64,000 nt of DNA from Candidatus Fermentibacterota bacterium (GTDB taxonomy: Bacteria > Fermentibacterota > Fermentibacteria > Fermentibacterales > JCC-6), in NCBI GenBank assembly GCA_003646025.1, contig QNDR01000001.1:3837-67836 (forward strand), read 5' to 3'. Of the stretch, positions 16,744-35,878 are shown in pieces. Position 1 is the stretch's first letter. Each line of letters opens with the position of its first letter. Under the pieces are notes generated by a model. The model was not told where the DNA came from and made no database searches. It worked only from the letters and a program-made list of their open reading frames with translations. Made by a program: the position numbers and the translations under genes.

Positions 16744-16767
16744 TTGTGATAGTACAAACTATCACAA
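16744..16767. promoter_or_regulatory. 24-bp perfect palindrome TTGTGATAG-TACAAA-CTATCACAA immediately upstream of rex; candidate operator (Rex-like half-sites with non-canonical spacing)
   Basis: Read directly: 9-bp arms are exact reverse complements. The half-sites TTGTGA/TCACAA match Rex half-sites but are separated by 12 bp instead of 6. Confidence 0.4.
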
Positions 16768-16775
16768 TATTATGA

Positions 16776-17426
16776 ATGGAGATTACAGTGATTGCCGTTA
16801 AAGTTTCGGAAAAATCCATACGGAGGCTGAGCCACTATGCCCGATGTCTGCGCCTTGCAAAAAAGAGAGGAGAGTCGGTAATAACCTCCCGGCAGATGGC
16901 CGCGAACTGTGGAATTTCGTCTGCCGCCGTTCGCAGAGACCTGTCAATTTACGGAGAGTTCGGCAAACAGGGTTCCGGTTACAATGTAGACGACCTGCTG
17001 ATAAACATAGAGAATATTCTGGGAACAACTGATCCGCCATCTGTGATTATCGTCGGTGCCGGCAGTATCGGTTGTGCTCTGATGACATCCGGTCTTGCCG
17101 GCACAGGTGGTTACAACTACAGCGCTATTTTCGACAACGATTCTGCAAAAATAGGAAAAGAATGCAATGGCAGGGTTATCAGACCTGTTGAAAAAATTCA
17201 TGAGATTCTGCAGAAGGAGAAGGAAGTTATTGCGGTTATTGCTGTAACCGGTGGATCTGGACAGGCAGCTCTTGACATGCTGGTTGCGGCAGGTTGTAAG
17301 GCAATTCTAAGTTTTACTCTTGAGCCACTCAAGGCTCCAGAAGATGTTGAAATAAAATACGTTGAAGTGTCTACTGAACTCGATGTTCTGACCCATTCCA
17401 TGAGAAAGAAGGAGCGTGTTTACTGA
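16776..17426 (+). CDS. rex: redox-sensing transcriptional repressor Rex
   Basis: N-terminal winged helix (SIRRLSHYARCL) followed by a Rossmann motif (IIVGAGSIGCAL). The stop overlaps the next start (ATGA at 17423-17426), so this is the first gene of the operon. Confidence 0.85.
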   Translation: MEITVIAVKVSEKSIRRLSHYARCLRLAKKRGESVITSRQMAANCGISSAAVRRDLSIYGEFGKQGSGYNVDDLLINIENILGTTDPPSVIIVGAGSIGCALMTSGLAGTGGYNYSAIFDNDSAKIGKECNGRVIRPVEKIHEILQKEKEVIAVIAVTGGSGQAALDMLVAAGCKAILSFTLEPLKAPEDVEIKYVEVSTELDVLTHSMRKKERVY

Positions 17427-17923
17427 TGAAAAGAGCACCAGCCGTTGTTTCCACTTCGGTGATCCTGATGGGTATCTGGCTGAGTCTGACACTCAGCACC
17501 GATATCCAGGAGATTGTGCTGGGTGTGGTGGTTAGTGTTATTGCAGCCATAGCCACAAACGGAGCACTTACCGGAAACCTCTTCCGCCTTCTCAAGCCCC
17601 GAAAGTTCATAGCGGCAATTAGCTACATATTTTATTTTCTTGGCCAGATGATAAAAGCTAATATTGACGTACTGTTCAGAGTGTTCAGGCCCGTTATTCC
17701 TCTTAATCCCGGCATAGTAAAGGTAAACCTGAACTTGAAGAGCGAAAGGGCCAAGGTGATTGTCGCGAACTCAATTACCCTGACACCGGGAACCATAACC
17801 ATAGACATCGCTGGTGACCACATCTTTGTTCACTGGATCTTCCTTCCGGATGGAGATGTTCACGCGGAAACACAGTCGATGGTAGACGGTTTTGCAGGAA
17901 GATTGGAGAAGATCTTTGAGTAA
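17426..17923 (+). CDS. Mrp antiporter subunit E-like (MbxA/MbhA equivalent)
   Basis: MnhE pattern including SITLTPGTITIDIAGDHIFVHW. Confidence 0.8.
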   Translation: MKRAPAVVSTSVILMGIWLSLTLSTDIQEIVLGVVVSVIAAIATNGALTGNLFRLLKPRKFIAAISYIFYFLGQMIKANIDVLFRVFRPVIPLNPGIVKVNLNLKSERAKVIVANSITLTPGTITIDIAGDHIFVHWIFLPDGDVHAETQSMVDGFAGRLEKIFE

Positions 17924-18179
17924 CACATTCATGGTTATTCTTTTTGTGCTTATCGGTGGAGGGCTGTTCCTGGCTTTTCTTCGCCTGATTCTTGGCACAA
18001 AGGCAACAGACAGAGCTGTCGCTCTTGATACAACAACACTGATTACAACAGGATTTCTTGTGCTTGTCGCCTTTCTTCAGGGAAGGTCTATGCTTCTTGA
18101 TGTTGCCCTGGTTTATTCCGTCCTTTCTTTTCTTGGTGTTCTGGCCGTCGCCAGGTATCTCGACGGGGGGCTGAGATGA
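17892..18179 (+). CDS. Mrp subunit F-like (MbxB equivalent)
   Basis: MnhF motif LRLILGTKATDRAVALDTTTLI. The start is either TTG at 17892 or ATG at 17931. Confidence 0.75.
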   Translation: MQEDWRRSLSNTFMVILFVLIGGGLFLAFLRLILGTKATDRAVALDTTTLITTGFLVLVAFLQGRSMLLDVALVYSVLSFLGVLAVARYLDGGLR

Positions 18180-18511
18180 GTTTCACATTTATACTGGCTC
18201 ATGTGCTCACCGGACTGGGGGCATTGTTCCTTTTCGCCAGTGGTGTCGGGGTATTCAGAATGCCGGATGTTTTCAACAAGATGCATGCCGGTACGAAGGC
18301 TACTACTCTGGGCTCTATTCTGTTTCTTTCCGGACTGGGTCTTTTTGAGCCGTCATGGCTGCCGAAACTTCTTCTGGTTGCTGTTTTTATCGTTCTTACA
18401 AATCCGGTGTCCAGCCATGCTCTTGCAAGGGCCGCCCACAACGATGCATCTGAAAAGCCGGACAATCTGGTTATTGATGACCTTGAAGAGAGCAAGGGGG
18501 AAGAACAGTGA
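18176..18511 (+). CDS. Mrp subunit G-like (MbxC equivalent)
   Basis: MnhG motif FRMPDVFNKMHAGTKATTLG; overlaps its neighbours by 4 nt. Confidence 0.8.
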   Translation: MSFTFILAHVLTGLGALFLFASGVGVFRMPDVFNKMHAGTKATTLGSILFLSGLGLFEPSWLPKLLLVAVFIVLTNPVSSHALARAAHNDASEKPDNLVIDDLEESKGEEQ

Positions 18512-18759
18512 ATATGTCTTTGTTTGCTGCAGCTTCCATCGGTACAGGTGTAATGATGATAGTTGCTGCGGTTGCCGCTCTGATAGTGAAAAAACTGATT
18601 TCAGCCATTATCATCGTGGGCTTTGTAAGCCTTTCTGCATCGCTGCTTTTTCTTCTGATGGATGCGCCTGATGTGGCTATTACTGAAGCCAGCATCGGCG
18701 CTGCCATATCCACGGTTATTTTCCTCTGGGGAAGAGGAAAGATAGGAGGGGAACAATGA
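18508..18759 (+). CDS. small DUF4040/MnhB-N-terminal-like membrane subunit (MbxD equivalent)
   Basis: 83-aa two-TM protein in the operon position of MbxD/MbhD. Confidence 0.55.
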   Translation: MNMSLFAAASIGTGVMMIVAAVAALIVKKLISAIIIVGFVSLSASLLFLLMDAPDVAITEASIGAAISTVIFLWGRGKIGGEQ

Positions 18760-19445
18760 TACGCACCATCGTCGGGCTCGCAATTGTTCTTATCCTGATG
18801 GCTATTCTGATAACGGTTGTTGATGATTACACAGTTCCGTCCGCACTTTCAGGAGTGGGAGAATCGTACACAGAAACCGGAGTGGAGGATACTGGGTCTG
18901 TGAACCTTGTCACCGCTGTTGTGGTGGCTTACAGAGGGCTTGATACCCTGGGTGAAGTAGTGGTGCTTTTCAGCGCGTCCACCGCCGTTGTTCTTATCCT
19001 CACACTTATACCCATTGGTTCCGGGCCAACCCCTCCAAGCTCTATTGTTTCGTTCACTGCCGGTATTCTGCCGTCGGCGATCATTCTGTTCGGCATTTAC
19101 ATCATAACCCACGGGCATCTCAGTCCAGGTGGAGGATTTCCCGGCGGTGCGGTGGTCGCTTCGGCATTTCTGCTTGTAATGCTGGGCAGCAACACTGTTC
19201 CCGGGAAATCAAAATTTCTTTCCTCTATTGAGTCTCTTGCAGGTCTTACCTTCGGTCTGCTCGGGTTCTGGGGCATGTTTGCTGCAGGGCAGTTTCTGAA
19301 CAACCTTGTTCTTCCTGCAGGCTCTCCGGGGAGAATAATATCAGCAGGTATTATTCCCCTTATTTCACTGGCCATAGGGGCTAAAGTCGCAAGCGAGTTG
19401 TCTGGGATATTTTCTTCCTACAGAAAAGCGGGAGGTGAGAAATGA
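18756..19445 (+). CDS. Mrp subunit B-like (MbxF equivalent)
   Basis: MnhB motif NLVTAVVVAYRGLDTLGEVVVL. Confidence 0.8.
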   Translation: MIRTIVGLAIVLILMAILITVVDDYTVPSALSGVGESYTETGVEDTGSVNLVTAVVVAYRGLDTLGEVVVLFSASTAVVLILTLIPIGSGPTPPSSIVSFTAGILPSAIILFGIYIITHGHLSPGGGFPGGAVVASAFLLVMLGSNTVPGKSKFLSSIESLAGLTFGLLGFWGMFAAGQFLNNLVLPAGSPGRIISAGIIPLISLAIGAKVASELSGIFSSYRKAGGEK

Positions 19446-19798
19446 GTGCAGAGTATCTGTTTTACTGGTCCATGGCTGCCACAGGTCTGGGATTGATTCT
19501 GATAGGCTTGTGGGGTGTTCTCACAAGAAAACACATACTGAGGATCGCTCTCGCATTTACACTCGCGGACACAGGGGTAAACCTGATCCTGGTTTGGAGT
19601 GGTTTTCTTCCCGGCCGTTCTGCTCCCATAGTTGATTCATCTGTGACCCAGATGGTTGATCCCCTTCCGCAGGCACTTGTTCTTACTTCCATAGTCATAG
19701 GTGTGGCTGTTGCTGCCCTGTTCGTTGTGGTTGGTGTGCTGGCCTCGCGTAAATCCGGCTCTGCCGATATTCGACACATGAAGGAGCTGAAATGGTAA
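19442..19798 (+). CDS. Mrp subunit C / NuoK-like (MbxG equivalent)
   Basis: MnhC/NuoK-like sequence ILRIALAFTLADTGVNLILVW. Confidence 0.8.
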   Translation: MSAEYLFYWSMAATGLGLILIGLWGVLTRKHILRIALAFTLADTGVNLILVWSGFLPGRSAPIVDSSVTQMVDPLPQALVLTSIVIGVAVAALFVVVGVLASRKSGSADIRHMKELKW

Positions 19799-22713
19799 AA
19801 GCACTGGCTGTATTTCTGCCTCTTCTGGGAGCCTTTGTTAACGCCTGGCTTCCTGGAAAACACCCGAAAGCGTCCCGGTTCGTAAGTTACATAATCCTCA
19901 CAGCCGGTCTGGGCTTTGTTGTAATGCTCTCTTTGCAGCTTGGAGCCTGGAACCTTGAAGACCTGTCAGATTCCGTGATATTTCATTCCGGTGTCGGGGT
20001 TCCTCCTCTCAGTATCAATCTGGAGATTACTGCCGGTGGAACGCTGGTTGCTATTGCAATGTACCTGGCGGTTATTTTCTCCATTCATCGTTTCGCTCTG
20101 CATACCCCGAAGAGTCAGCCGTTGATTCTCGCCATGCTCACTGCTTCGCTGGGATTGCTGTTTGCCACCGACATCTTTAATTCGTTTGTGTTCCTTGAAA
20201 TAGGATCAATTGCCACCATCGGTCTTACTGCTGCCTCAAAATGCGGCAGCCGCTGGGAAGCAGCAATAAAAGTTGCACTGGTCTCAGGTCTGGTTACAAT
20301 TCTGTACCTGCTGGCAGTGGCTGTTCTTTACCGATCCACAGGTATGCTTACGCTGCAGGCTCTGGGTACGCTTACAGGCGGATCGGCGGTTCTTGTATCA
20401 ATACTGCTGCTGACCGTGATAGTTACAGAGCTCAAGGCCTTTCCGCTTACAGGGTGGGGGCTTGATTTCTATCAGGGAGCAAGCTCTAATGTTGCCGGGC
20501 TGTACAGTGCAACATGGAGTCTTGCCGTTCTTATGTGGGCAGCCAGAGTTCTACCTCTTCTTCCAATTGGAAACCCGATTATCTATGCCTGGATTGGGGC
20601 TGGAGGACTTGTTTTAAGCCAGCTTGCAGGCCTCCGGGCAGGCAGTGCCGGCAGAATACTGGGTTATTCCACTTCCGCCTATGCATCGCTTCTTCTTGTT
20701 GCAGCCGGTACACTCACCGGCGCCTTTTACACGCAGACTGTACTGATCCTCATGGTTTTTTCTTCACTGGCGAAGTTCAGTCTGTTCATGCTTGGAAACC
20801 CATGGAAAAATCGGAGATGGAGCGGCTACGGAACTATCCTTATGCTTGCACCGGTACTGCTTCTGGCAGGGATTCCGCCGCTTCCGGTTTTCTGGGCGAA
20901 ATTTGCCTTCCTTGGATACCTTGCATCCAACTTTACTGTGATTTTTTATGCTGTGCTGGCAGGGTTGTTCCTGGAAGCTGTATACCTGTTCCGATTCTGG
21001 GCAGACAGATCAGAAAAAATCCAACTGAAACCCTTTTCAAAGCCGTCGGCCACAGCAGGAGTTTTTGTGATACTGATCGCGGCGGTCTGGATAACACGGC
21101 TGCTGTGGACTCAGCTTGATTTCTCTGGATCAATTGTAACTTCATCGACCCTGCGTGTTATTTTCCACGTTCTGTTCGGTGCTGGAACTCTGCTGTGTCT
21201 TCCCGGTGTATTCAACCGAATCGGCAGCGAGAGAAACTACTGGTTCTGGCTGCTTATATCCGGTGCTTCGCTTACGCTGCTTCCTGCTGCTGGTAACGGA
21301 ATTACGTTCTACATCCTGTGGGAGATCTCCGCTTTTGCAGCGGTTGTTGGTGTGAGTCGAGGTTCTGGAGCCAGGAACGGTGCTTTCTGGTACGCCGTTT
21401 TCGCTTCATTCTCCGGATATCTGCTTCTTGCCGGAATTCTTCTTTCAAGGGGAAGTTTTGTAATGGCAGGGTTGCCTGCACTGCTGATGACACTGGCAGC
21501 GCTGGTTAAACTCGGACAGTTTGGAACACACCTCTGGAATGTAAGAACATATCCAGCGGCTCCAGGAACCATGCCTGCCTACCTTTCCGGAACTGCATCC
21601 AAAGCAGCAGTTCTTCTTTTAGTGGCAGTAGCTCTAAACGCCACAGGCGGCGCTCTTCCGTGGGGAAGGGTTATGGCCTGGGCAGGTGCTCTTACGGCAC
21701 TGGCCGGCGCTGTACTTGCCGCACTTGCTCCCGATTACAAGAAGCTGCTTGCCTATGCCAGTGTTTCCCAGATCGGATACATCCTGGTCGGGCTTGGGCT
21801 TGCAAGCATTTTGGGCTGGACTGCAGCTATTTATCACACAATACACCACATGATATTCAAGATGGCTCTCTTTCTGGGGGCTGCCAGCGTACTTTACAGA
21901 ACAGGCACAACCAGGTTTAACAATCTGGGAGGTCTTGTGAAAAAGATGCCCTTGACATTCGCATTTACGCTTATTGCCGTGATTTCCTTTGCCGGAGTAC
22001 CACCTCTTGCCGGTTTTGGTGGCAAGTGGCTTCTTTACAACGGACTGATCGAAGCAGGCTGGCTGCCGATTCTGATAGTGGCAATGTTTGCTTCAGTTGT
22101 AGCATTCCTCTACTCATACCGGTTGCTTCACGGGGTATTTCTCGGTCAGCTTTCACCTAAAAATGCCCACGCAAAGGAAGCTCCCCTCACCCTTTTGCTT
22201 CCTCAGGGTCTTCTTGCCGCATCCATAATGGTTCTTGGCTTCAAGCCAACACTGCTTCTTAACATCCTTGTCCCGGTGTTGAAGGCTATCCCGGGTCTTT
22301 CCGGGCTGGCACCGGTCATACAGGGAGACATGGTTCTCACCACAATGGGAACCTGGAATGCCTGGATGGTTGGTATTATGGTGATGGTTGTGTTTGGAAT
22401 TGCTTTCGTGTTCTACTGGATATCCGGCCACAAGCCGAAGTATGTAGGGCAGCTGGATATTGGTTTTGCAGGTGAGATGCCTCCCTCCGCTGATGAGGTT
22501 CACTATTCAAACAACTTTTACAGGCCTTATGAAAGGGCACTTGCCTTCCTTCCCAGAATACATGCGGAAAAACTATTCCACGGGGTAAGTAAGACCTTCA
22601 GTATGCTGGGTGACGGGGTGAGGATGCTGTTCACCGGCGACGGCAGAACGTATCTGGCTCATTCCCTGCTTTTCCTGGTGCTTCTGTTCGTGTTTCTGAA
22701 TGGAGGGATGTAA
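19792..22713 (+). CDS. fused tandem antiporter-like subunits (MrpD/NuoN-like x2; MbxH+H' equivalent), 973 aa
   Basis: Two successive NuoL/M/N-type modules. The second carries YASVSQIGYILVGLGL and HHMIFKMALFLGA. RBS AAGGAG sits 5 nt before ATG at 19792. Confidence 0.8.
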   Translation: MVKALAVFLPLLGAFVNAWLPGKHPKASRFVSYIILTAGLGFVVMLSLQLGAWNLEDLSDSVIFHSGVGVPPLSINLEITAGGTLVAIAMYLAVIFSIHRFALHTPKSQPLILAMLTASLGLLFATDIFNSFVFLEIGSIATIGLTAASKCGSRWEAAIKVALVSGLVTILYLLAVAVLYRSTGMLTLQALGTLTGGSAVLVSILLLTVIVTELKAFPLTGWGLDFYQGASSNVAGLYSATWSLAVLMWAARVLPLLPIGNPIIYAWIGAGGLVLSQLAGLRAGSAGRILGYSTSAYASLLLVAAGTLTGAFYTQTVLILMVFSSLAKFSLFMLGNPWKNRRWSGYGTILMLAPVLLLAGIPPLPVFWAKFAFLGYLASNFTVIFYAVLAGLFLEAVYLFRFWADRSEKIQLKPFSKPSATAGVFVILIAAVWITRLLWTQLDFSGSIVTSSTLRVIFHVLFGAGTLLCLPGVFNRIGSERNYWFWLLISGASLTLLPAAGNGITFYILWEISAFAAVVGVSRGSGARNGAFWYAVFASFSGYLLLAGILLSRGSFVMAGLPALLMTLAALVKLGQFGTHLWNVRTYPAAPGTMPAYLSGTASKAAVLLLVAVALNATGGALPWGRVMAWAGALTALAGAVLAALAPDYKKLLAYASVSQIGYILVGLGLASILGWTAAIYHTIHHMIFKMALFLGAASVLYRTGTTRFNNLGGLVKKMPLTFAFTLIAVISFAGVPPLAGFGGKWLLYNGLIEAGWLPILIVAMFASVVAFLYSYRLLHGVFLGQLSPKNAHAKEAPLTLLLPQGLLAASIMVLGFKPTLLLNILVPVLKAIPGLSGLAPVIQGDMVLTTMGTWNAWMVGIMVMVVFGIAFVFYWISGHKPKYVGQLDIGFAGEMPPSADEVHYSNNFYRPYERALAFLPRIHAEKLFHGVSKTFSMLGDGVRMLFTGDGRTYLAHSLLFLVLLFVFLNGGM

Positions 22714-23617
22714 AATGTTGTCCAACATAATGTCTATTCTCCTGACAGTTGTTACCGCCCTGGTGTGGGGTCTGCTTCTTGGAGGAATTTCCAGGAATGT
22801 AACCGCGAAGATTCACGGCAGGGTTGGTCCGCGAGTTACCCAGAACTTCATTGATCTTTGGAAGCTCTTCAGAAAAACTTCGTCTATTCATCATGGAGGA
22901 ATGTTCTGGATGGCTCCCCTGTTCAGAATAACAGGAGCGATTGCAGTGCTGCTCATGGTTCCTGTGGTCGTGGGTCACAACATTAACTACAACATGTCTT
23001 TTGCCGGAGACATCTTCCTTCTTCTTTACATCATGTTCTTCGGTTGTCTGGGAATGGCTCTTGGAGCCGGAAATTCCGGTCATCCATACTCTGTGGTAGC
23101 AATAAGCCGCGGACTTGCTCAGATGTCATCCTACGAGCTTTCATTCTCCATTGCTGTAGTGGCAGTTGCCGTAGGTCTGCATACTCTGAGAATAGAGGGA
23201 ATTGTTGCTGCCCAGCAGGCGGGTGTTTCAAGCTGGAACATATTCAGGTTTCCTTTCGCGTCCGCCGGCGCGCTGATTGCTTTTCTTCCCATGCAGATGG
23301 CGTATCCTTTCAGTATTGTACTGGCCCCGCAGGAGATACCTATTGGTCCTCCAACAGAGTACAGCAGCAGATTTCTGTCTTTCATGTTCAGTGGGAGGGC
23401 ACTGTTCAGCGTGGCCAAACTGCTGTTGTTTGTAAATCTTTTCTTTGGCGGTGCTTCCAGCTGGATGGCGCTGTTCGTTAAGACTTTCCTTCTTTACATG
23501 TATGCGATCGTAGTGAGTTCGGTATTTCCAAGATTCAGAACAGAGCAGAGCATTAAATTCCTCTGGCTTGTTCCCACTACTCTGGCTCTCGTGGACCTTG
23601 TCCGCGTGATGCTTTAG
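22700..23617 (+). CDS. NuoH-like membrane subunit (MbxM/MbhM equivalent)
   Basis: N-terminal AKIHGRVGPRVTQNFIDLWKLFRK resembles the NuoH/HyfC/MbhM loop; about 8 TM segments. Confidence 0.7.
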   Translation: MEGCKMLSNIMSILLTVVTALVWGLLLGGISRNVTAKIHGRVGPRVTQNFIDLWKLFRKTSSIHHGGMFWMAPLFRITGAIAVLLMVPVVVGHNINYNMSFAGDIFLLLYIMFFGCLGMALGAGNSGHPYSVVAISRGLAQMSSYELSFSIAVVAVAVGLHTLRIEGIVAAQQAGVSSWNIFRFPFASAGALIAFLPMQMAYPFSIVLAPQEIPIGPPTEYSSRFLSFMFSGRALFSVAKLLLFVNLFFGGASSWMALFVKTFLLYMYAIVVSSVFPRFRTEQSIKFLWLVPTTLALVDLVRVML

Positions 23618-23626
23618 GAGGCTGTG

Positions 23627-24190
23627 ATGTACTGTAATCAACCACCGAAGAAGCCGGGAGACAAAAAAGAGGTTCTTCAGAAGATCACCAACATGGCCCG
23701 GGCAAACAGCCTGTGGGTCACCGCCTACGGTACAGGCTGCGGCTCCATCGAGCTCCGGCCTCTGGGCACTTCAAGGTTTGACATGGAGCGGTTCGGGATA
23801 GCCATGCGGCCAACTCCAAGGCAGGCGGATGTGCTGATCATCTCCGGGTATCTGGCAACAAAAACCCTGAAGAGAGTGATCAGAGTTTACGAGCAGATCC
23901 AGGATCCCAAGTACATCATGGCCCTCGGCTCATGCACCATCAACGGCGGAATGTATTTTGATTCCTACAACACACTGAATGTTCTGGACAAGTACCTTCC
24001 GGTGGATGTGTATGTCATGGGATGTATGCCAAGACCGGAGGCTATAATTGATGGTTTCAGTCTGCTGATGAAGAAGATAAAGGAAGGCAGAGCTGTGGGC
24101 TGGAAGCACTACAGGGAAAATTTGGATTACTACCGGGAAAACCAGAAACAGATCATCAAAAACTGGGACCTTCCCGATTACAACTGGTAA
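23627..24190 (+). CDS. NuoB / [NiFe]-hydrogenase small-subunit-like protein (MbxJ equivalent)
   Basis: Candidate proximal-cluster Cys ligands: GTGCGSIELRP, LGSCTINGG and VMGCMPRPE. RBS AGGAGG precedes the GTG-ATG at 23624-23629. Confidence 0.8.
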   Translation: MYCNQPPKKPGDKKEVLQKITNMARANSLWVTAYGTGCGSIELRPLGTSRFDMERFGIAMRPTPRQADVLIISGYLATKTLKRVIRVYEQIQDPKYIMALGSCTINGGMYFDSYNTLNVLDKYLPVDVYVMGCMPRPEAIIDGFSLLMKKIKEGRAVGWKHYRENLDYYRENQKQIIKNWDLPDYNW

Positions 24191-24201
24191 GGGGTGAGAA
24201 T

Positions 24202-24765
24202 ATGATTGACAAAGTAAAAAAAGAGCTGGAAATCCGTTTCCCCTTACTGAAGCTGGTAAGAGAGCAGCATAACTACCTGCATATAAAGGTAGACAAAGCT
24301 GCTGCCGCAGACGCGGTGCTTACGGCTAAAACCAGTCTGGGTTTTACTACTCTTCAGCTGATAAGCGCGGTAGACAGAATAGAAAACGGAGCGTTTCAGT
24401 TGACCTGGATACTGGAAAACTACGATGAGCAGGAAATCCTTCTTATCAGTGCCTACTTTCCAAGGAAAAACTGCGTTGTTCCTTCTTTGAGTCAAATCTG
24501 GCCGGCTGCCAGTGCTTTCGAGCGTGAACTTTTCGAAATGTTTGGAATCAGTTTTCCCGGTAATCCCAGGGAGGGCGAAGACTTCCTGCTGGAAGGCTGG
24601 AAAGACATGCCGCCTATGCGGAGAGATTTTGAAACAGAAGAATACGCTAGAAGAACATTTGGCGAGCGGCAGCCCAGGGAGCACACAGACCCGAGACAGT
24701 ACATCGGAGATGTGGTTGGTGAATGGAATACTCCCATGGGACGCAACAGAGAGGAGGAAAAATAA
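24202..24765 (+). CDS. NuoC (30 kDa)-like subunit (MbxK equivalent)
   Basis: ERELFEMFGISFPGNP matches the NuoC signature. Confidence 0.8.
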   Translation: MIDKVKKELEIRFPLLKLVREQHNYLHIKVDKAAAADAVLTAKTSLGFTTLQLISAVDRIENGAFQLTWILENYDEQEILLISAYFPRKNCVVPSLSQIWPAASAFERELFEMFGISFPGNPREGEDFLLEGWKDMPPMRRDFETEEYARRTFGERQPREHTDPRQYIGDVVGEWNTPMGRNREEEK

Positions 24766-25889
24766 TGGGTGTTAACCCGGCAACAGATCCGAAAAAAACC
24801 ACCCATCTCTTCTTTGGTCCGCAGCATCCCGGCGTAACCGGTAACATGAGTGTTGAAATGTGGTTTGACGGAGATCAGGTAACAAAGGCAATAACCCATG
24901 TTGGATATCTCCACAGAGGTTTTGAAAAGCTCATGGAGAAAAGGCTCTGGATACAGAACTTTCCTCTTGTGTGCAGAATCTGTGTTCCGGAACCGGACAT
25001 AAATGAGGAGTGCTACGCCCTGGCAATTGAAGAGCTTGCAGGAATAAAAGTACCGGAAAGGGCAAAGTGGATAAGAACTCTTGTTCTTGAAATGGCGAGA
25101 CTTGCAATGAATCTTATGGCGTTCGGGGGCCAGGCTGGTACTTTGGGACTCGGAACAGGAGCCATGTGGGGTATTACATTCAGAGACTTTATTCTCGATC
25201 TGTTTGAAGAACTCACTGGCGCCAGAGTTTATCACATCTATATCCAGCCTGGAGGCGTCAGACGCGATCTGCCCCGGGGATTCAGGAAGCGTGTTCACCT
25301 TGTTCTGAACAAGATTGAAGAGAGACTTCCCGAGTTTGATCGATTGATACTGAACAACGCAGTTTTCAAATTAAGAACGAAAGGCATAGGCGCTGTAAAA
25401 CCGGAGTGGATAGAGGAGTACGGTCTTGTTGGACCTGTTGCCAGAGGCAGCGGTTCAGTACGGGATGTAAGAAAAGACGCTCCCTACGAAATCTACGACA
25501 AGCTTGATTTCGATGTGGTTACTGAAACAGGCAGCGACATATACGCCAGAGCAATGGTCAGAAGAAGGGAAATCGAGCTCAGTATCTCGCTTATCAGACA
25601 GATCGTGGGAGGAATACCGCCAGGACCTGTTGCGACGAAATTACCCAATCTTACCGAGTGGAGAGTACCTGCAGGTGAGTACTATTCCCGCGTGGAATCT
25701 TCCCGTGGTGAGTATGGCTACTACGTGGTTAGTGACGGGTCTCTCAAACCGAGAAGGGTGCATGTGCGTGGGCCTTCATACGTGCACGCAGTTCCCCTCC
25801 TTGAGAGGATGCTGATTGGGGCCAACATAGCCGATGTTTCGAACATCATGGTAAGTCTCACCACCTGTCCGCCGGAAATAGAGAGGTAG
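24765..25889 (+). CDS. NuoD / [NiFe]-hydrogenase large-subunit homologue with degenerate metal-site motifs (MbxL/MbsL-like)
   Basis: Carries HRGFEKLME and YIQPGGV. The N-terminal motif reads LVCRICVPEPD where hydrogenases have RxCGxCxxxH. The C-terminus reads LTTCPPEIER where hydrogenases have DPCxxCxxH. Strong RBS GAGGAGG precedes ATG at 24765, which overlaps the nuoC-like stop. Confidence 0.8.
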   Translation: MGVNPATDPKKTTHLFFGPQHPGVTGNMSVEMWFDGDQVTKAITHVGYLHRGFEKLMEKRLWIQNFPLVCRICVPEPDINEECYALAIEELAGIKVPERAKWIRTLVLEMARLAMNLMAFGGQAGTLGLGTGAMWGITFRDFILDLFEELTGARVYHIYIQPGGVRRDLPRGFRKRVHLVLNKIEERLPEFDRLILNNAVFKLRTKGIGAVKPEWIEEYGLVGPVARGSGSVRDVRKDAPYEIYDKLDFDVVTETGSDIYARAMVRRREIELSISLIRQIVGGIPPGPVATKLPNLTEWRVPAGEYYSRVESSRGEYGYYVVSDGSLKPRRVHVRGPSYVHAVPLLERMLIGANIADVSNIMVSLTTCPPEIER

Positions 25890-25896
25890 GAAACTT

Positions 25897-27666
25897 ATGA
25901 AATTTACAGATGTAATCTCTCCATTCCTGGCCTGGTCCAGAGCGGCGAAGAAAGCCGATACTATTCCATATCCCACTCAGCAGAACCCGGGAGCAGACAG
26001 GTATCGCGGTTTCCACATTAACGATACAAGCAAGTGTATCGGCTGTGGCAGGTGTGAGACTATCTGCGAGAACAAAGCCATCGACATGGTGAAGGTTGAG
26101 GGTATTGAACCCACAAAGGGAGATTCCGGTCTCAGACCGGTTGTAGACTACGGCAGATGCTGCTGGTGTGCGCTGTGCATCGATGTATGCTCCACTGGCT
26201 CCCTTGCCTTTACCAATGAATACAGATGGGTAACTGAAAAACCCGACACTTGCAGGTACACTCCAGGTGTTGACAAAAAGGCATGGGACAACGAGGAAAA
26301 GGGTTACAGACAGGAAAATGACGTTCTCGGGTGGGCCGGCTCACCCAGGGAAGAAATGACGATCGAAGTTCCAGAAGAGCGAATCAAGACCTTCGATGAA
26401 GTTGTGAAGGGCTACACAGTACAGCAGGCAATGGATGAAGCTTCAAGATGCATCCAGTGCGGTCTCTGCATCAGTGCCTGCCCCGCGCACATGCATATAC
26501 CCGACTACCTGAAGGCCATTGCTGAAGGAAGATTTGTTGATGCGGTTAAACTGTTCTACGACAACAACCCCCTTCCAGAGATGTGCGGAAAGGTCTGCAC
26601 CAGGCAGTGTGAAACAGTCTGTGCCATGGGCTATCAGGGTGAGTCTATCGCAATCAGGTGGCTCAAGCGATTTGCCTGCGAGCAGTTCGAATCCCTTGCC
26701 GATGTGCTTGCACTTGAGGCACAGCCGGGAGAGCCGAACGGGAAGAAGGTTGCAGTTGTTGGCGCAGGTCCTTCAGGTCTCAGTGCTGCATACTACCTTT
26801 CCCGTAAGGGATACGAGGTGCATGTGTTCGACCGCTATGAAAAAGGTGGCGGCGTAGCATGGTACGCCATTCCCGAGTACAGGCTTCCTGCTGAAGGCAT
26901 CAGCAAGCAGATGAAGGTCTTTGAACAGGCCGGCGTAATAATGAATTACGGGAAAGAAATCAATGCCGGAATGCTGAAGAAGCTGGAATCTGAATTCGAT
27001 GCCGTTTACCTTGCCGTTGGACTTCAGAAACCTTCCAGTGCAAGGATTGAGGGTGAGGACCTTCCAGGGGTCAGACCTGCGTTTGATTTCCTTATGAATT
27101 CTCCGGAAAAAACAGAAGATCTCAAAGGCAAAACTGTCATCGTCATAGGCGGGGGAAATGTTGCTATGGACACAGCCAGAACCTGTGTAAGACTCGGGGC
27201 TGAAGTTATCCTGTCCTACAGAAGGCGTGTTGTGGACATGCCGGCAGATGATGAAGAGATCCATGAGGCCATGGAGGAAACCATCGATTTCAGGCCGAAA
27301 ACAATTCCCATCAGAATCGAAAAGACGAAGAACGGTATCAGGTATCTCTACCACGAAGCCAAGATGGTTCCGAACCCCAAAGGAGGCAGGCCTTCACCCA
27401 AGCCGAAGGATGATGTTGAGCATGCAATAGATGCAGACATCCTGTTCTCTGCCATAGGTCAAACCTCCGACATTGAGTTTATTCCCGAATCAATGCAGAA
27501 GGAAATGGAACTCAAATGGGGCCGTATTATCGTAGACGACAAGCAGTACACGGGCTACAAAAACTTCTTCGCCGGTGGCGATATCACACCTGGCGAGGGT
27601 GATGCGATAACAGCAATAGCAGATGGCCTGAGAGCTGTTCAGGGAATAGTAGACCGGCTGGAATAA
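25897..27666 (+). CDS. fusion of a NuoI/MbxN-type 2x[4Fe-4S] ferredoxin subunit with a GltD/SudA-like FAD/NAD(P)H oxidoreductase
   Basis: N-terminus: CIGCGRCETIC plus CCWCALCIDVC (two ferredoxin motifs). Then the GltD N-terminal FeS region (CIQCGLCISACP...NPLPEMCGKVCTRQCETVC). Then two Rossmann motifs (VAVVGAGPSGLSAAYYL and VIVIGGGNVAMDTA). Confidence 0.8.
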   Translation: MKFTDVISPFLAWSRAAKKADTIPYPTQQNPGADRYRGFHINDTSKCIGCGRCETICENKAIDMVKVEGIEPTKGDSGLRPVVDYGRCCWCALCIDVCSTGSLAFTNEYRWVTEKPDTCRYTPGVDKKAWDNEEKGYRQENDVLGWAGSPREEMTIEVPEERIKTFDEVVKGYTVQQAMDEASRCIQCGLCISACPAHMHIPDYLKAIAEGRFVDAVKLFYDNNPLPEMCGKVCTRQCETVCAMGYQGESIAIRWLKRFACEQFESLADVLALEAQPGEPNGKKVAVVGAGPSGLSAAYYLSRKGYEVHVFDRYEKGGGVAWYAIPEYRLPAEGISKQMKVFEQAGVIMNYGKEINAGMLKKLESEFDAVYLAVGLQKPSSARIEGEDLPGVRPAFDFLMNSPEKTEDLKGKTVIVIGGGNVAMDTARTCVRLGAEVILSYRRRVVDMPADDEEIHEAMEETIDFRPKTIPIRIEKTKNGIRYLYHEAKMVPNPKGGRPSPKPKDDVEHAIDADILFSAIGQTSDIEFIPESMQKEMELKWGRIIVDDKQYTGYKNFFAGGDITPGEGDAITAIADGLRAVQGIVDRLE

Positions 27667-27951: not shown

Positions 27952-28368
27952 TCAGGAATCAAATTTCCTTGTTTCATGCAGAACGATTGGTAGATACTTT
28001 ACAAACTGCTGGAAATCCCTATCTGTAGTGTAAATAGCCATTTTTCTCCGCACCGCAACTGCACATATCAAAAAATCAGTGTTTGATCCCTGAATTCCCT
28101 TTGCCCGGCACTTATTGAAGTATTTAGCTGCAGTAACATGATCAGTGGCTTCCAGAGTGATGTCCGGAAATGCTTTCAGGTGTTCTTCAAGCCTGTCGAA
28201 CTGAGCATCCACACGCAACCCGGACAATAGCTCCTGGCGTATAGGGCCAATTATTTCAACACGATGCTCACGGATCAAACCCTGGAGCTCTCTTGAAACA
28301 TCTGATTCCTCACTGGTTTTCCGGCGAAGAGCCTCAGACCAGACACATGTGTCCACCAGAATTCTCAT
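27952..28368 (-). CDS. vapC: PIN-domain toxin VapC
   Basis: N-terminal MRILVDTCVW, about 138 aa, overlaps the upstream antitoxin by 4 nt. Confidence 0.75.
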   Translation of the reverse strand: MRILVDTCVWSEALRRKTSEESDVSRELQGLIREHRVEIIGPIRQELLSGLRVDAQFDRLEEHLKAFPDITLEATDHVTAAKYFNKCRAKGIQGSNTDFLICAVAVRRKMAIYTTDRDFQQFVKYLPIVLHETRKFDS

Positions 28369-28565
28369 GCTCGGGATCTCTGTTTTTTGTAGTTGTAATC
28401 CTCAGCATAGTCAATGGAGCCAAAAAGGGCTAGTATGTTCTCCTGCTCAAGATGAAGTATGTAGTTAATAAGAGCCTGTGTTACTGCGGCTTTTTTTGTT
28501 TTGTGGTGTCCAAGATCCACTGCCCTGGTTATAAGCTTGTCATCAATCTGCAGATTTGTTGCCAT
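28365..28565 (-). CDS. vapB: type II antitoxin, VapB-like
   Basis: 66-aa protein upstream of and overlapping vapC. RBS GGAGGTGA sits 5 nt before ATG at 28565. Confidence 0.55.
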   Translation of the reverse strand: MATNLQIDDKLITRAVDLGHHKTKKAAVTQALINYILHLEQENILALFGSIDYAEDYNYKKQRSRA

Positions 28566-28734
28566 GAATATCACCTCCACACAAAACTTAACACATTATT
28601 ATGTGTGGGTCAATGTGTGAATTGTTGTTCTGCCATCTATCCGTTCAGCATAGAGCTCTTGGGCTTCTCAGTAACAGGGGGCGGGTATAGCTATGAATAT
28701 CACTTCTGATAAATACTATTCATCCCTGGATAGT

Positions 28735-29511
28735 TTATCTTGTTTCTTTAACTCTTCCCACCGGTGCCAGGTAAACCACGAACTCGTCAACTCCGTCCAG
28801 ATGCAGAAGATCGTCAACCTTGCTCTGCGAGTATGCGGCAATGGCAACTGTCCCCAGCTGAAGAGACTCTGCGGCAAGGTAGAGGTTCTGGCACACATGA
28901 CCTGCGTCCAGAAGCATGGCCTTGTGGGATTCCCCTTTGTAACGCCATTCTCCCATGTAGGGTCTGCAGGCCCAGAAGAAAACAACCGGGGCCTCGCCTG
29001 TAAAGCTCTGTCCCGCTGCTGCCGTAGTAAGTTTTTCCCCGATATTGTTTTCCTGAAACAGGAAGATCAGGCTGTGCCTCAGCGCTGAGTAACGGTATAT
29101 GCCGGGTTTTACTCCGGTAACTCTGTTGATTGCCAGATAGGTTTCAAAAGGGTGACGGGCGCCTGCAGATGGAACCGTTCTGAAAGTTACAGTTCCCCTG
29201 TTTTTGTATGCGTTGATAGTTTTTTTCACACCCTGAGTTGCCCACAGCAAGAAAGACAGCTCTTCCAGCGTAATGCTTCCTGTGGTGTATTTTCTTCTGC
29301 TTACCCTGTCAAGAATACAGTTCGCAAGGCCAGGTTTAATTGCTTTTACAGAATCGTGTTCAGGAAGTGCAATTTCAACAGCATCCGGAAGAATCCGGGA
29401 TTCCACCGGAGGAGGGTTTACTCCCCGATCCTGATCTGATTTTTCTTCAAGAAATTTGGGAGCGTCAAAATGTGACTTCATCAGTTCTCTGTTGGTTATC
29501 CAGTTTTTCAT
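28735..29511 (-). CDS. SagB-type dehydrogenase (nitroreductase superfamily)
   Basis: The pattern ELSFLLWATQG...VPSAGARHPFETYL...LLDAGHVCQNLYLAA is typical of SagB/ThcOx-like proteins. Start chosen at ATG 29511 (TGGAGGAAC-ATG). Confidence 0.6.
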   Translation of the reverse strand: MKNWITNRELMKSHFDAPKFLEEKSDQDRGVNPPPVESRILPDAVEIALPEHDSVKAIKPGLANCILDRVSRRKYTTGSITLEELSFLLWATQGVKKTINAYKNRGTVTFRTVPSAGARHPFETYLAINRVTGVKPGIYRYSALRHSLIFLFQENNIGEKLTTAAAGQSFTGEAPVVFFWACRPYMGEWRYKGESHKAMLLDAGHVCQNLYLAAESLQLGTVAIAAYSQSKVDDLLHLDGVDEFVVYLAPVGRVKETR

Positions 29512-29632
29512 GTTCCTCCAATGTTCTGGGCAATATGGGAACGGGTTGAGATTTGTGCAATCGGTGCGTTTGGAATAATGGTCCGAATTGTTTAGTATTA
29601 ATTCAAGGAGCATTACAAAGAAGGAGATTAGA

Positions 29633-30076
29633 GTGAGCGCATCTAACAGGGACACACTGCATCTTCTGGCAGTATTTCACTATGTAGTCGCAGGGCTGAT
29701 TGCTCTTGCTGCATGTTTTCCACTGATTCACTTGACCGCAGGCATGTTTCTGGCTGTTGGAGGCGTCAGTAATGATGAGCCTGCAGCGGGAGTTGTAGGT
29801 GCAACCTTTGTGGTGATTGCAGCCATTCTGATTATCATTGGATGGGGTCTTGCGATATTCGTATTTATTTCAGGGAAAAACCTGGACAGGCAGACGAAGT
29901 ATCAGTTCTGCATGGTCGGGGCAGGTGTGTTGTGCATATTTATGCCTCTTGGTACAATACTGGGAGTCTTTACCCTGGTGACCCTGCAGGATGATGCAGT
30001 GAAACAGCTCTTCAAGAACAATGAACAGTCTGTTCCTGGTGACCAGTCAGAATCTTTGAAACAGCGGAAAGACTGA
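29633..30076 (+). CDS. small membrane protein, paralog A (DTLHLL family), 3-4 TM
   Basis: GTG start at 29633 after AAGGAG. About 60% identical to the 30776 ORF, including at the nucleotide level. Confidence 0.55.
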   Translation: MSASNRDTLHLLAVFHYVVAGLIALAACFPLIHLTAGMFLAVGGVSNDEPAAGVVGATFVVIAAILIIIGWGLAIFVFISGKNLDRQTKYQFCMVGAGVLCIFMPLGTILGVFTLVTLQDDAVKQLFKNNEQSVPGDQSESLKQRKD

Positions 30077-34800: not shown

Positions 34801-35010
34801 AGTAAACTCCAACTGTTTAGTGTTGCGCATACTGGAACTGTGTGGAAGAGAGAAACTCTCTAAACACCATTGTGAATATATGAATAAGGGTAATAGAAAT
34901 ACAACTATTCTATATCAATTATATATGAATATATTAATACATACTGAAGTGATAGGAAATTAAAAACCAGCAACGGAGATACTTCAAAAGGATCTCCGCT
35001 GCTGTGACTG

Positions 35011-35877: not shown

Positions 35878-35878
35878 A

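Follow-up and report, generated by a model that had tools for sequence, protein, structure and literature searches.

Results

A fused gene at the end of a rex-mrp-mbs operon

The window, i.e. the whole stretch of 64,000 nucleotides analysed here, comes from a Candidatus Fermentibacteraceae genome and carries a rex-mrp-mbs operon of about 13-14 genes. The last of these genes encodes a protein in which a ferredoxin-type domain is fused to a flavoprotein module. Upstream of it lie the following features.

16744..16767, + strand: 24-bp perfect palindrome TTGTGATAG-tacaaa-CTATCACAA, candidate Rex operator, 9 nt 5' of the rex ATG
16776..17426, + strand: rex, redox-sensing (NADH/NAD+) transcriptional repressor (NCBIfam NF003995, 195 bits, cutoff 126; Pfam Put_DNA-bind_N and CoA_binding)
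17426..17923, + strand: MnhE/MrpE-like membrane subunit, MbsA position (Pfam MNHE, E 2e-35)
17931..18179, + strand: MrpF/PhaF-like subunit, MbsB position (Pfam MrpF_PhaF on the identical gene of locus L001)
18176..18511, + strand: MnhG/PhaG-like subunit, MbsC position (Pfam PhaG_MnhG_YufB)
18514..18759, + strand: MbhD-like subunit, MbsD position (Pfam MbhD)
18756..19445, + strand: MnhB/MbhE-like subunit, MbsE position (Pfam MnhB, E 1e-19; MbhE weak)
19442..19798, + strand: NuoK/MnhC-like subunit, MbsG position (Pfam Oxidored_q2, E 1.5e-20)
19792..22713, + strand: antiporter-like protein of 973 aa, fusion of MbsH (N-terminal half) and MbsH' (C-terminal half) (6u8y_H, 6u8y_X; Pfam Proton_antipo_M in two stretches)
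22700..23617, + strand: NuoH/MbsM-like anchor of the peripheral arm (Pfam NADHdh, E 1.5e-49)
23624..24190, + strand: NuoB/MbsJ-like subunit (6u8y_J, E 1.6e-64, ungapped alignment)
24202..24765, + strand: NuoC/MbsK-like subunit (Pfam Complex1_30kDa, E 1e-24)
24723..25889, + strand: NuoD/MbsL-like large subunit (6u8y_L, E 7e-107, full length; motifs RICVPEPD and CPPEIER)

The rex stop codon overlaps the start of the next gene, and the true start of the NuoD/MbsL-like gene is likely at 24765. Domains were assigned to all 13 genes, and together these make up the MBS/MBX gene set: Mrp-type subunits with homologues of NuoH, NuoB, NuoC, NuoD and NuoI in one collinear operon. The 973-aa protein matches 6u8y_H over aa 3-256 and 6u8y_X over aa 565-965 (E 2e-56). 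The fused gene occupies the mbxN position, directly 3' of the NuoD/MbsL gene, and the operon holds no second NuoI-like gene. The preliminary description of this DNA had remarked on the lack of a NuoF flavoprotein, and indeed a Pfam scan of the operon genes and of further window ORFs (180 aa or longer) detected neither NuoE nor NuoF nor NuoG. The same scan returned no NfnA/SudB or GltB partner, so that an alternative electron path for flavin-based bifurcation is not evident. Of the neighbouring redox genes, glutamate dehydrogenases, a CoADR/NSR-like gene and a nitroreductase were considered as conserved partners and discarded, since they are not kept beyond the same or closely related genomes. 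Papers on Fermentibacteria do not mention the operon.

Domains and motifs of the fused protein

The gene is a single intact ORF (25897-27666, + strand) that runs uninterrupted from an ATG at 25897 to a stop codon ending at 27666 and encodes 589 aa, divided as follows.

25897..26235, + strand: MbsN/NuoI-type domain, aa 1-113 (6u8y_N, E 1.5e-21 for aa 7-113; NuoI models, E 1e-25)
26236..26376, + strand: conserved ordered linker, aa 114-160, PGVDxKxWD...R151..M154 (conserved alignment columns; AF2)
26377..26688, + strand: NfnB/GltD-type Fer4_20 domain with two [4Fe-4S] sites, aa 161-264 (Pfam Fer4_20, E 1e-29; aligns with T. maritima NfnB 4ylf_B)
26743..27666, + strand: FAD and NAD(P)H Rossmann domains, aa 283-589 (Pfam Pyr_redox_2, E 1e-28; Foldseek TM 0.86 to NfnI-L 5jca_L)

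In agreement with the architecture first proposed from the sequence, Pfam places a Fer4 dicluster (aa 43-101), Fer4_20 (aa 162-264, E 1e-29) and Pyr_redox_2 (aa 283-577, E 1e-28) in this one ORF. The N-terminal domain of about 113 aa is a homologue of MbxN/MbsN/NuoI, as had been suggested. Among proteins of known structure, P. furiosus MbsN (6u8y_N) matches it best, with E 1e-21 where NuoI reaches no better than 4e-11, and the match extends to the RYRGFH segment ahead of the clusters. NuoI is characterised by two CxxCxxCxxxC motifs for two [4Fe-4S] clusters and by an N-terminal segment contacting NuoH; the NCBIfam NuoI/FpoI models match aa 6-116 with E 1e-25 to 1e-22, all under the family cutoffs. 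Both motifs had been read with an optional terminal proline; the cysteines are in place (C47xxC50xxC53xxxC57 and C88(C89)xxC91xxC94xxxC98), but the residues that follow are E and S. By homology to MbsN, whose cluster ligands are listed in PMC8165549, C47, C50, C53 and C98 are the ligands of the distal [4Fe-4S] cluster, and C57, C88, C91 and C94 those of the medial one. All eight are invariant in 76 of 76 loci.

The remainder of the protein is, in accordance with the earlier reading, a complete GltD-type module with two [4Fe-4S] sites, FAD and NAD(P)H domains, as judged from Pfam, alignment and fold match. NCBIfam GltD/gltA models match aa ~150-588 (E 1e-92). For aa 154-584 a full-length alignment is obtained with NfnB, NfnI-L (SudA) and GltD (4ylf_B, E 1e-75; 5jca_L; 6s6s_G, E 2e-58), which are the NADPH:FAD:2x[4Fe-4S] subunits of Nfn transhydrogenase, sulfide dehydrogenase and glutamate synthase; the cluster cysteines, the FAD motif, the YRR motif and the fold (TM 0.86) are held in common. 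The cluster residues of the Fer4_20 domain are C185, C188, C191 and C195, then C230, C234, C238 and C242, plus E239; NPLPEMCGKVCTRQCETVC corresponds to aa 224-242. The eight cysteines are again invariant in 76 of 76 loci, and E239 is found in 72 of them. With the FAD motif GAGPSG (aa 289-294) and the NAD(P)H motif GGGNVA (aa 418-423), this means that all 16 FeS cysteines and both dinucleotide motifs are invariant across the 76 loci. The possibility that the N-terminal domain is just the usual FeS domain of SudA/NfnB-type proteins is ruled out, because the usual Fer4_20 domain is present in addition. A specificity motif SYRRR lies at aa 440-444, its YRR aligned with the YRR of NfnB and NfnI-L, and from this YRRR motif the window copy is predicted to be of the NADPH type.

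The whole protein is covered by the NCBIfam model NF010590 (aa 4-586 against profile positions 9-604 of 611; E 1e-171). Its score of 572 bits is not above the equivalog cutoff of 946 bits, which places it in a different subfamily with the same architecture. The matches to the Pfam and NCBIfam models lie far above chance expectation.

The fusion across genomes

Adjacent nuoI-like and gltD-like genes might have been joined by a sequencing or assembly error, but the chance of this is negligible, because the identical protein and operon, with the same ORF, are found on three independent assemblies, and because the fusion recurs in many clusters and loci. More than 100 clusters at 90% identity hold proteins of ~590 aa that cover 98-100% of the query, and at least 592 loci in species-representative reference genomes, from a dozen or more lineages, encode it. 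The linker, conserved and ordered, also argues against an artefact: its mean pLDDT in blocks of 10 residues is 65-90 in the AF2 model (lowest in aa 141-150), and the model as a whole (pLDDT 88.8, pTM 0.84) shows the two halves as one rigid body. Among 80 reference-genome loci that we inspected, most have one tblastn HSP spanning about aa 1-584, and the shorter matches fit loci that end inside the gene. Other NuoI-GltD fusions thus exist, and they keep their neighbours: the operon order is the same in all of these 80 loci with enough upstream DNA. A search of representatives at 50% identity with aa 1-165 gave few matches, 16 at E<=1e-30, some fused (~575-765 aa) and some short, many of the latter probably fragments; this set is a poor basis for counts. 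At least one of the short proteins, P0129 (172 aa), seems to be an intact MbsN-like protein standing by itself.

The fused protein therefore belongs to a large conserved bacterial family, whose carriers include Thiothrix, Rhodoferax, Prolixibacter denitrificans, Chlorobiota, Lysobacterales, Bacteroidota and Acidobacteriota. The family splits by specificity motif into a YRR (NADPH-type) group and an LE (NADH-type) group, the latter making up about half of it, and both types co-occur in one genome. Genes for DHO_dh-like or CBS proteins lie downstream only in the NADH-type half, and rubrerythrin-like genes follow both types. A rubrerythrin-like gene comes after the fused gene in 14 of 73 loci, and in one relative, P0132, a C-terminal rubrerythrin domain is fused to the same protein; neither the window nor the Fermentibacteria loci have such a gene behind the fusion. 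These downstream genes and the motif split hint at other or additional partners.

Partner subunits resemble those of P. furiosus MBS

We take the window operon to be fully collinear with the mbs operon of P. furiosus. The MBS of this archaeon (formerly MBX; 6U8Y; PMC7684303) has the same gene set, with mbsN last and directly after mbsL. The MbsL-like subunit scores 361 bits to MbsL, 246 to the highest-scoring 49-kDa subunit of complex I and 133 to MbhL; for the MbsJ-like subunit, the score to MbsJ is 220 bits against 142. By sequence, P. furiosus MBS thus provides the nearest relatives of the partner subunits, rather than complex I or hydrogenases.

Details of the two subunits agree with this. 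In MBS the proximal [4Fe-4S] cluster is held by only three cysteines (MbsJ C28/C93/C123) and the loop is shortened, which is a signature of the complex (PMC7684303). C39, C104 and C134 of the window subunit align with these ligands and are invariant in 73 of 73 loci; since the alignment to MbsJ is ungapped, the proximal-cluster loop is neither longer nor shorter than that of MBS. The non-ligating C25 of MbsJ is replaced by Gly36 in the window subunit, and 72 of the 73 loci have this Gly. The MbsL-like subunit is without a NiFe site. Rather than the four NiFe cysteines of group 4 [NiFe] hydrogenases, it retains one cysteine per pair (RIC87V and TC382PPE), and these, its only residual cysteines, align with MbsL C85 and C385. 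Across the family HPG[VI]TG is invariant, and C87 and C382 are found in 67 and 58 of 77 loci, respectively. The motifs RICVPEPD and CPPxIxR are common to both MbsL-type proteins, as are the eight cysteines and RYRGFH of MbsN to the N-terminal domain of the fusion. The window differs from P. furiosus in several respects. MbsH and MbsH', both present, are joined into one protein; the host is a mesophilic-type bacterium, and its operon includes rex; and the free-standing, ferredoxin-fed MbsN of 208 aa is replaced by an MbsN domain fused to a ~475-aa NAD(P)H/FAD/2x[4Fe-4S] module.

A conserved palindrome in front of rex

The 24-bp palindrome is unique in the window, where 0.03 would be expected by chance. 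An identical copy, with the Rex-type half-sites TTGTGA/TCACAA, stands just 5' of rex in loci L004, L006, L010-L013 and L078. No match to the canonical Rex box, TGTGA-N4-8-TCACA, occurs in the window; the half-sites of the palindrome are spaced more widely. Promoter and terminator scans gave match counts at chance level; a TTGACT-17-TACACT match ends at the palindrome start, and we give it no weight. The position of rex at the head of the operon and the conserved Rex-type palindrome lead us to predict that the operon is derepressed when NADH accumulates, which fits an electron sink working in the NAD(P)H-oxidising direction. There is a mismatch here: Rex senses NADH, and the YRRR motif of the window copy predicts NADPH.

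Discussion

The preliminary description regarded the fusion as an electron-input solution that had not been described. This was not borne out: NF010590/PRK13984 models the whole architecture, PMC4758237 describes it, and it is common in public genomes. Degli Esposti (2015, PMC4758237) noted that a gltD-related, NAD(P)(H)-interacting flavoprotein substitutes NuoI in mbx-like operons of Thermotoga and proteobacteria. The fused architecture is thus known, catalogued and widespread, and is not a new kind of system. By their published description, the mbx operon of T. maritima and the mbx-like operons of proteobacteria have the same architecture (PMC4758237; PMC2246101; PMC9431562); the window operon lacks the terminal rubrerythrin of some of the latter and has rex in front.

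AegA and YgfT of E. coli likewise combine a GltD-like body with FeS ferredoxin domains at the N-terminus, and their NCBIfam models match aa 44-588 of the fusion (E 6e-81 and 1e-71). Yet these N-terminal domains are not of the NuoI/MbsN type, their genes lie outside Mrp/Nuo operons, and the window protein scores far under their cutoffs. Unlike in Nfn, SudA and GltD, the flavoprotein module is here fused to a complex I-type ferredoxin domain and would be part of a membrane complex. Exchangeable input modules that feed the NuoI-type clusters are found in the complex I superfamily on the NuoB/C/D/H/I core: NuoEFG (complex I), FpoF (F420H2 dehydrogenase), direct docking of ferredoxin (NDH-1, MBH, MBS) and FdhF-HycB (formate hydrogenlyase). 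The module in the window differs in being an FAD protein of the GltD/NfnB type, not an FMN protein of the NuoF type, and in being fused, not docked, to the NuoI-type subunit. The name 'ion-translocating ferredoxin:NADH oxidoreductase (IFO)' reportedly goes back to Nobu et al., and we considered whether the operon might be this system. The identity was rejected, because the IFO of published papers is an Hdr-associated complex unrelated to the rex-mrp-mbs operon.

The MbsN domain and the complete GltD module, with no NuoEFG, NfnA or GltB found among the window ORFs scanned, are most naturally read as a device that would pass electrons of NAD(P)H straight into the FeS chain, as the preliminary description had inferred. 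Going further, we give an even chance to the proposal, drawn from sequence comparison, that the protein is the last subunit of the peripheral arm in a bacterial complex of the MBS/Mbx type in which NAD(P)H feeds ion-translocating reduction of sulfane sulfur under the control of Rex. NAD(P)H (NADPH, as predicted for the window copy) would reduce the FAD, from which electrons would move one at a time, first along the pair of GltD-type clusters and then along the pair of MbsN-type clusters, to the three-cysteine [4Fe-4S] cluster of the MbsJ-like subunit. A small oxidant would be reduced in the chamber formed by MbsL, MbsM and MbsH'. By analogy with P. furiosus MBS, sulfane sulfur (polysulfide) is the likeliest candidate, and its reduction would drive H+/Na+ translocation via MbsH-H' and the Mrp-type subunits. 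Electron input would come through the GltD module and not from soluble ferredoxin, much as NuoEFG or FpoF serve elsewhere in the complex I superfamily. NAD(P)H and polysulfide are separated by a small drop in standard potential, about 50-60 mV, and ion pumping would therefore require favourable ratios in vivo. Thiothrix, Rhodoferax, Prolixibacter denitrificans and Chlorobiota are presumably facultative or nitrate-respiring, quinone-containing lineages, which counts against the mechanism, as does the occurrence of the family in sulfur oxidisers. As to sulfur itself, T. maritima mbxA is induced 4.4-fold by S0 (PMC9431562), Fermentibacteria are known from sulfur-rich anoxic sites and have been predicted to reduce S0 (PMC5030696), and Endoriftia expresses a putative Mrp-Mbx complex (PMC11636981). 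The catalytic model of MBS comes from a single study.

The electrons might instead run from reduced ferredoxin to NAD(P)+, with the GltD module as the NAD(P)+-reducing exit of an ion-translocating oxidoreductase analogous to Rnf, which was the original idea behind 'Mbx'. The free energy from ferredoxin to NAD(P)+ is sufficient for ion pumping, the hosts are fermenters that make reduced ferredoxin, and the GltD half is closest to NfnB, whose clusters exchange electrons with ferredoxin; this function was also stated for mbx-like operons in PMC4758237. We nevertheless hold it to be rather unlikely. Both substrates would meet at the tip of the peripheral arm, so that no electrons would pass through the MbsJ/MbsL/MbsM coupling site, and yet the three-cysteine proximal cluster and the MbsL motifs are strictly conserved despite such a bypass. 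Derepression by Rex at high NADH would be the wrong logic for a producer of NAD(P)H, and MBX of P. furiosus has been re-assigned from this very function to sulfane reduction (PMC7684303). Running the complex in reverse is a different matter: NAD(P)+ would be reduced uphill at the expense of the ion gradient, with a sulfur compound or some other donor supplying the electrons at the MbsJ site. This would concern above all autotrophs that oxidise sulfur, and the NADH-type (LE) subfamily. The NAD(P)H/polysulfide couple is near equilibrium, and the family occurs in Thiothrix, Chlorobiota and Lysobacterales. MBX of Endoriftia is co-expressed with the rTCA cycle, and PMC11636981 lists its direction as unknown. 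For the window, however, such reverse or bidirectional operation seems to us quite improbable, given a host lineage described as fermentative (PMC5030696), an operon headed by rex and a Rex-type palindrome, and no sulfur-oxidation genes among the window ORFs scanned.

The acceptor, too, could differ from sulfane sulfur. The complex might be an alternative complex I, an NAD(P)H:quinone oxidoreductase with the GltD module in place of NuoEFG and with menaquinone or ubiquinone as the acceptor at the NuoB/NuoD interface. Such a reaction would have a large driving force, and we assume that the carriers among Bacteroidota, Acidobacteriota and Chlorobiota, and Thiothrix, make quinones. In the NuoD-like subunit, the Thr of HPG[VI]TG presumably takes the position of the quinone-ligating His of complex I, and RICV that of the Tyr motif. 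The chamber of MBS is hydrophobic (PMC7684303), which would suit a quinone; against this, the complex I His/Tyr motifs are missing from the NuoD-like subunit and HPG[VI]TG is invariant, consistent with PMC4758237, the NuoB-like subunit is without the tandem CC motif, and all three core subunits resemble MBS far more than complex I. Thermotoga, where no cytochromes or quinones were found, is also among the reported carriers of the family (PMC4758237; PMC9431562). Altogether we assign a low probability to quinone reduction. Detoxification of oxidants, in which the fusion would hand NAD(P)H electrons to O2/H2O2 or to a diiron protein of the rubrerythrin type and the membrane part would be secondary, is suggested by the rubrerythrin-like genes of the 14 loci and by the rubrerythrin domain of P0132, and a rubrerythrin at the operon end was also described in PMC4758237. 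We think it very unlikely, since such genes are absent after the fusion in the window and in the Fermentibacteria loci, and since it leaves a strictly conserved membrane machinery of 12 subunits unexplained.

In evolutionary terms, archaeal MBS is seen as intermediate between Mrp-linked hydrogenases and complex I. To our knowledge, it is known only with ferredoxin as donor. If our preferred reading, NAD(P)H-driven reduction of sulfane sulfur, is true, the fusion would represent a second, independent coupling of pyridine nucleotides to a complex I-type core, apart from NuoEFG, and fermenters (Fermentibacteria, Cloacimonadota and Thermotoga, for example) would be able to dispose of NAD(P)H while conserving energy. 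In genome papers these proteins appear as 'glutamate synthase small chain', 'NADH dehydrogenase' or ferredoxin-dependent 'MBX', and with such labels metabolic reconstructions may assign the wrong donor. The family is common in digesters, in sediments and among sulfur-cycling bacteria. One might speculate, with less than even confidence, that the fused MbsN-GltD protein defines a large family of NAD(P)H-driven, ion-translocating reductases of the MBS type in mesophilic bacteria, with sulfane sulfur as the likeliest substrate and with YRR and LE subfamilies that often coexist. Such a family would be an unrecognised respiratory or redox-balancing system of anoxic habitats, and possibly a membrane-coupled link between the NADH and NADPH pools.

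Structure of the fusion protein

The fusion protein is encoded by the final gene of an operon that begins with rex. The features concerned are:

16744-16767: candidate Rex palindrome TTGTGATAGTACAAACTATCACAA, 24 bp, perfect, 9 nt 5' of the rex ATG
16776-27666, + strand: operon of ~13-14 tightly packed or overlapping genes
19792-22713, same strand as the operon: MbsH-MbsH' fusion, 973 aa, two antiporter-like pump subunits in one protein
25897-27666, + strand: fusion gene, one unbroken ORF, 589 aa

The preliminary description had read this ORF as a NuoI-like domain joined to a GltD-like module, and the composition agrees with it: two cysteine motifs in the first ~100 residues (C47xxC50xxC53xxxC57 and C88xxC91xxC94xxxC98), NPLPEMCGKVCTRQCETVC at aa 224-242, and GAGPSG and GGGNVA as the motifs for FAD and NAD(P)H. 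Domain analysis agrees. Pfam places a Fer4 dicluster at 43-101, Fer4_20 at 162-264 and Pyr_redox_2 at 283-577; among NCBIfam models, those for NuoI/FpoI cover aa 6-116 (E 1e-25 to 1e-22) and those for GltD/gltA aa ~150-588. Since Fer4_20 occurs besides the MbsN-type domain, the objection that the N-terminal ferredoxin is merely the usual FeS domain of SudA/NfnB-type proteins fails. NF010590 (PRK13984, 'putative oxidoreductase', 611 positions) spans the protein end to end (E 1e-171), though its score of 572 bits falls short of the equivalog cutoff (946 bits). Residues 154-584 give a full-length alignment with T. maritima NfnB (4ylf_B, E 1e-75) and also align with P. furiosus NfnI-L and, more weakly, with GltD. 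By offset from the MbsN alignment, C47, C50, C53 and C98 correspond to the distal cluster and C57, C88, C91 and C94 to the medial one. All 16 cluster cysteines and both nucleotide-binding motifs are invariant in 76 fused proteins.

An AlphaFold2 model (51 homologues; pLDDT 88.8, pTM 0.84) has an ordered linker and low confidence in the first ~30 residues only; Foldseek aligns it to NfnI-L with a TM of 0.86. None of the PDB chains, all of which were compared, spans both halves. In the dimer of the P. furiosus sulfane sulfur reductase (MBS, formerly MBX), the MbsN region matching the N-terminus of the fusion contacts a membrane subunit (PMC7684303).

An MBS-like operon core

The operon order is rex, MnhE-, MrpF-, MnhG-, MbhD-, MnhB- and NuoK-like genes, the 973-aa antiporter-like gene, NuoH-, NuoB-, NuoC- and NuoD-like genes, and the fusion. 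Judged by its sequences against all PDB chains, the core is MBS-like and neither complex I-like nor hydrogenase-like. In a full-length alignment the NuoD-like subunit reaches 361 bits with MbsL (6u8y_L); the best complex I 49-kDa subunit gives 246 and MbhL 133. The NuoB-like subunit scores 220 bits with MbsJ, against 142 for the next best. For the N-terminal domain of the fusion, MbsN matches at E 1.5e-21, NuoI at 4e-11 or worse and MbhN at 3e-8.

The motifs point the same way. C39, C104 and C134 of the NuoB-like subunit correspond to MbsJ C28, C93 and C123 in an ungapped alignment, so the first-ligand loop has the MBS length, which in MbsJ is three residues shorter than in its MBH counterpart (PMC7684303). 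MbsJ C25, a non-ligand that P. furiosus can do without (PMC7684303), is replaced by Gly. Across the 73-77 loci in which core motifs were counted, the three cysteines are invariant, as is HPG[VI]TG of the NuoD-like subunit, and Gly occupies the C25 position in 72/73. The NuoD-like subunit also keeps the MbsL motifs RICVPEPD and CPP(E/D)I(E/D)R with two residual Cys. These are frequent, not universal, in the family (67/77 and 58/77 loci), which fits their dispensability in MBS (PMC7684303). When the 973-aa protein was used as a tblastn query, most related loci gave long single matches, often over most of its length.

Distribution of the family

Among 5.8 billion proteins searched, more than 100 clusters of ~590 aa cover 98-100% of the fusion at identities down to 46%. 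A scan of 185,579 species, one genome each, in which the query was an alignment of the first 265 residues (top row, the window's copy), confirmed at least 592 fusion loci. Among 80 of these, most gave a single tblastn HSP over aa ~1-584, the shorter matches being consistent with loci that end inside the gene, and gene order 5' of the fusion is identical wherever upstream DNA suffices. We also considered two genes joined by a frameshift or assembly error; this is rejected, as the identical protein and operon occur in three independent metagenome assemblies, besides the many full-length homologues. The window itself matches the Candidatus Fermentibacteraceae MAG AUK191, in which the aligned N-terminal region is 100% and the whole fusion 97% identical. 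Carriers include Bacteroidales/Marinilabiliales (Draconibacterium, Prolixibacter denitrificans, Saccharicrinis), Cloacimonadota, Acidobacteriota/Aminicenantes, Calditrichia, Chlorobiota, Fibrobacteraceae, Caldisericaceae, Spirochaetales, Thiothrix, Lysobacterales, Propionivibrio, Rhodoferax and Rhodospirillaceae.

Two cofactor subfamilies

At the site that usually sets the choice between NAD and NADP, the fused proteins fall into two clear groups: 36 loci have Y-R-R and 40 have x-L-E. Y-R-R is shared with the NADPH-dependent NfnB and NfnI-L, and the acidic residue of x-L-E is the classical NADH signature. The window's fusion reads SYRRR, as do all Fermentibacteria loci compared. AUK191 carries a second, paralogous mrp-mbs operon (L077, JAGGYZ010000238.1) whose fusion is 44% identical and reads CLETE, an NADH-type motif in contrast to the YRRR of the window's copy. 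Cloacimonadota, Bacteroidales, Aminicenantes and Lysobacterales likewise contain both types.

Only LE-type operons have, 3' of the fusion, a gene for a dihydroorotate dehydrogenase-like FMN TIM-barrel protein of ~328 aa (22/39) or a CBS-domain gene (12/39), singly or together. The former, with the GltD-like module, resembles the PreT/PreA or DPD arrangement. A rubrerythrin-like gene (~150 aa) follows the fusion in 14 loci, seven of each type. One relative, P0132 (764 aa), is a triple fusion of MbsN-type, GltD-type and C-terminal rubrerythrin (aa 611-747) domains; another, P0129 (172 aa), is an apparently complete stand-alone MbsN-like protein with the linker motif PGVxPKPWD.

Regulation and neighbouring genes

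The product of the first gene scores 195 bits as Rex, above the cutoff of 126, and is a bona fide member of that family. The window has no canonical Rex box. The palindrome, unique in the window, has Rex-like half-sites, TTGTGATAG-N6-CTATCACAA, spaced 4 nt wider than in the canonical box. It is kept at the same place in one Acidobacteria locus and six Fermentibacteria-type loci, the latter with Rex proteins only 54-81% identical. Together with rex, this conservation supports a putatively autoregulated, NADH-responsive expression, which would favour the NAD(P)H-consuming direction.

Two glutamate dehydrogenase genes, possible sources of NAD(P)H, lie at 11271-12641 (+) and 15156-16439 (-). NF006929 identifies one of them as NADP-specific (748 bits, over the cutoff), and the other is divergent from rex, 337 nt apart; outside this species their adjacency to the operon is not conserved. 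Two large PPDK_N-domain proteins (8089-11061, 12708-15044) are encoded between and beside them. Directly 3' of the operon comes a VapC (PIN)/VapB toxin-antitoxin pair in the opposite orientation (27952-28580, -), and next a nitroreductase-family gene (28735-29655). The gene at 33436-34830 (-), 6 kb 3' of the operon in an adjacency that is not conserved, encodes a pyridine nucleotide-disulfide oxidoreductase of 464 aa from the CoA-disulfide reductase/NADH oxidase family (NF007123, 230 bits, under the cutoff), a family that also includes the NAD(P)H sulfur reductases (NSR) of archaea and T. maritima. Elsewhere are a C25 peptidase of the gingipain type (31262-33295, +; 677 aa), which weakly matches Por_Secre_tail, a type IX secretion sorting domain, and a sigma-54-dependent activator of 1218 aa that carries TPR repeats (219-3875, -). 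ORFs of 240-600 aa including 4174-5961, 35011-37761, 40832-42369 and 58159-59976 had no Pfam match.

Proposed function

The identity of the domains, the residues that ligate the cofactors, the MBS-type character of the core, and the conservation of sequence and gene order were observed directly; from them we infer a route. NAD(P)H would reduce the FAD, and electrons would pass through the GltD-type pair of clusters and then the MbsN-type pair before they reach the 3-Cys cluster of MbsJ type, where sulfane sulfur, or another small oxidant, may be reduced in a step coupled to ion translocation. Some caveats apply. NAD(P)H and polysulfide differ little in standard potential, Rex senses NADH yet the window's motif predicts NADPH, the fused family is present in sulfur oxidisers too, and some carrier lineages are respiratory and contain quinones.

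Several rivals to NAD(P)H-driven sulfane sulfur reduction were weighed. The complex might be an NAD(P)H:quinone oxidoreductase, or it might operate in reverse, a direction that NADH-responsive expression would disfavour. A detoxification route linked to rubrerythrin is another candidate, and rubrerythrin is often last in mbx-like operons (PMC4758237). The older Mbx hypothesis, an Fd:NAD(P)+ oxidoreductase, is the reading given in PMC4758237. In T. maritima, mbxA is up 4.4-fold with S0, ferredoxin being assumed as the donor (PMC9431562), and for the putative Mrp-Mbx complex of Endoriftia the direction is listed as unknown (PMC11636981).

The domain interpretation of the preliminary description is supported, but not its suggestion that this electron input had gone undescribed. 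A gltD-related flavoprotein acting at the NAD(P) site was reported in 2015 to take the place of NuoI in the mbx-like operons of Thermotoga and of proteobacteria (PMC4758237), and NF010590 describes the same architecture. The twelve-gene mbx operon of T. maritima comes from Thermococcales (PMC2246101), and Ehr-type complexes with other add-on modules have been discussed (PMC6349859). The Hyd24-12/Fermentibacteria genome paper proposed S0 reduction via sulfhydrogenase (PMC5030696); a term search of its text found no mention of an mrp-mbs operon. Given these reports, the fused architecture is known and catalogued. The family is thus of a known, biochemically uncharacterised kind, and the claim of novelty is unsupported. 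The window adds a member in a new phylum, and the new points are the family-wide 3-Cys MBS signature, the YRR/LE split with paralogues of either kind in a single genome, the Rex-type palindrome kept 5' of the operon and the broad taxonomy.
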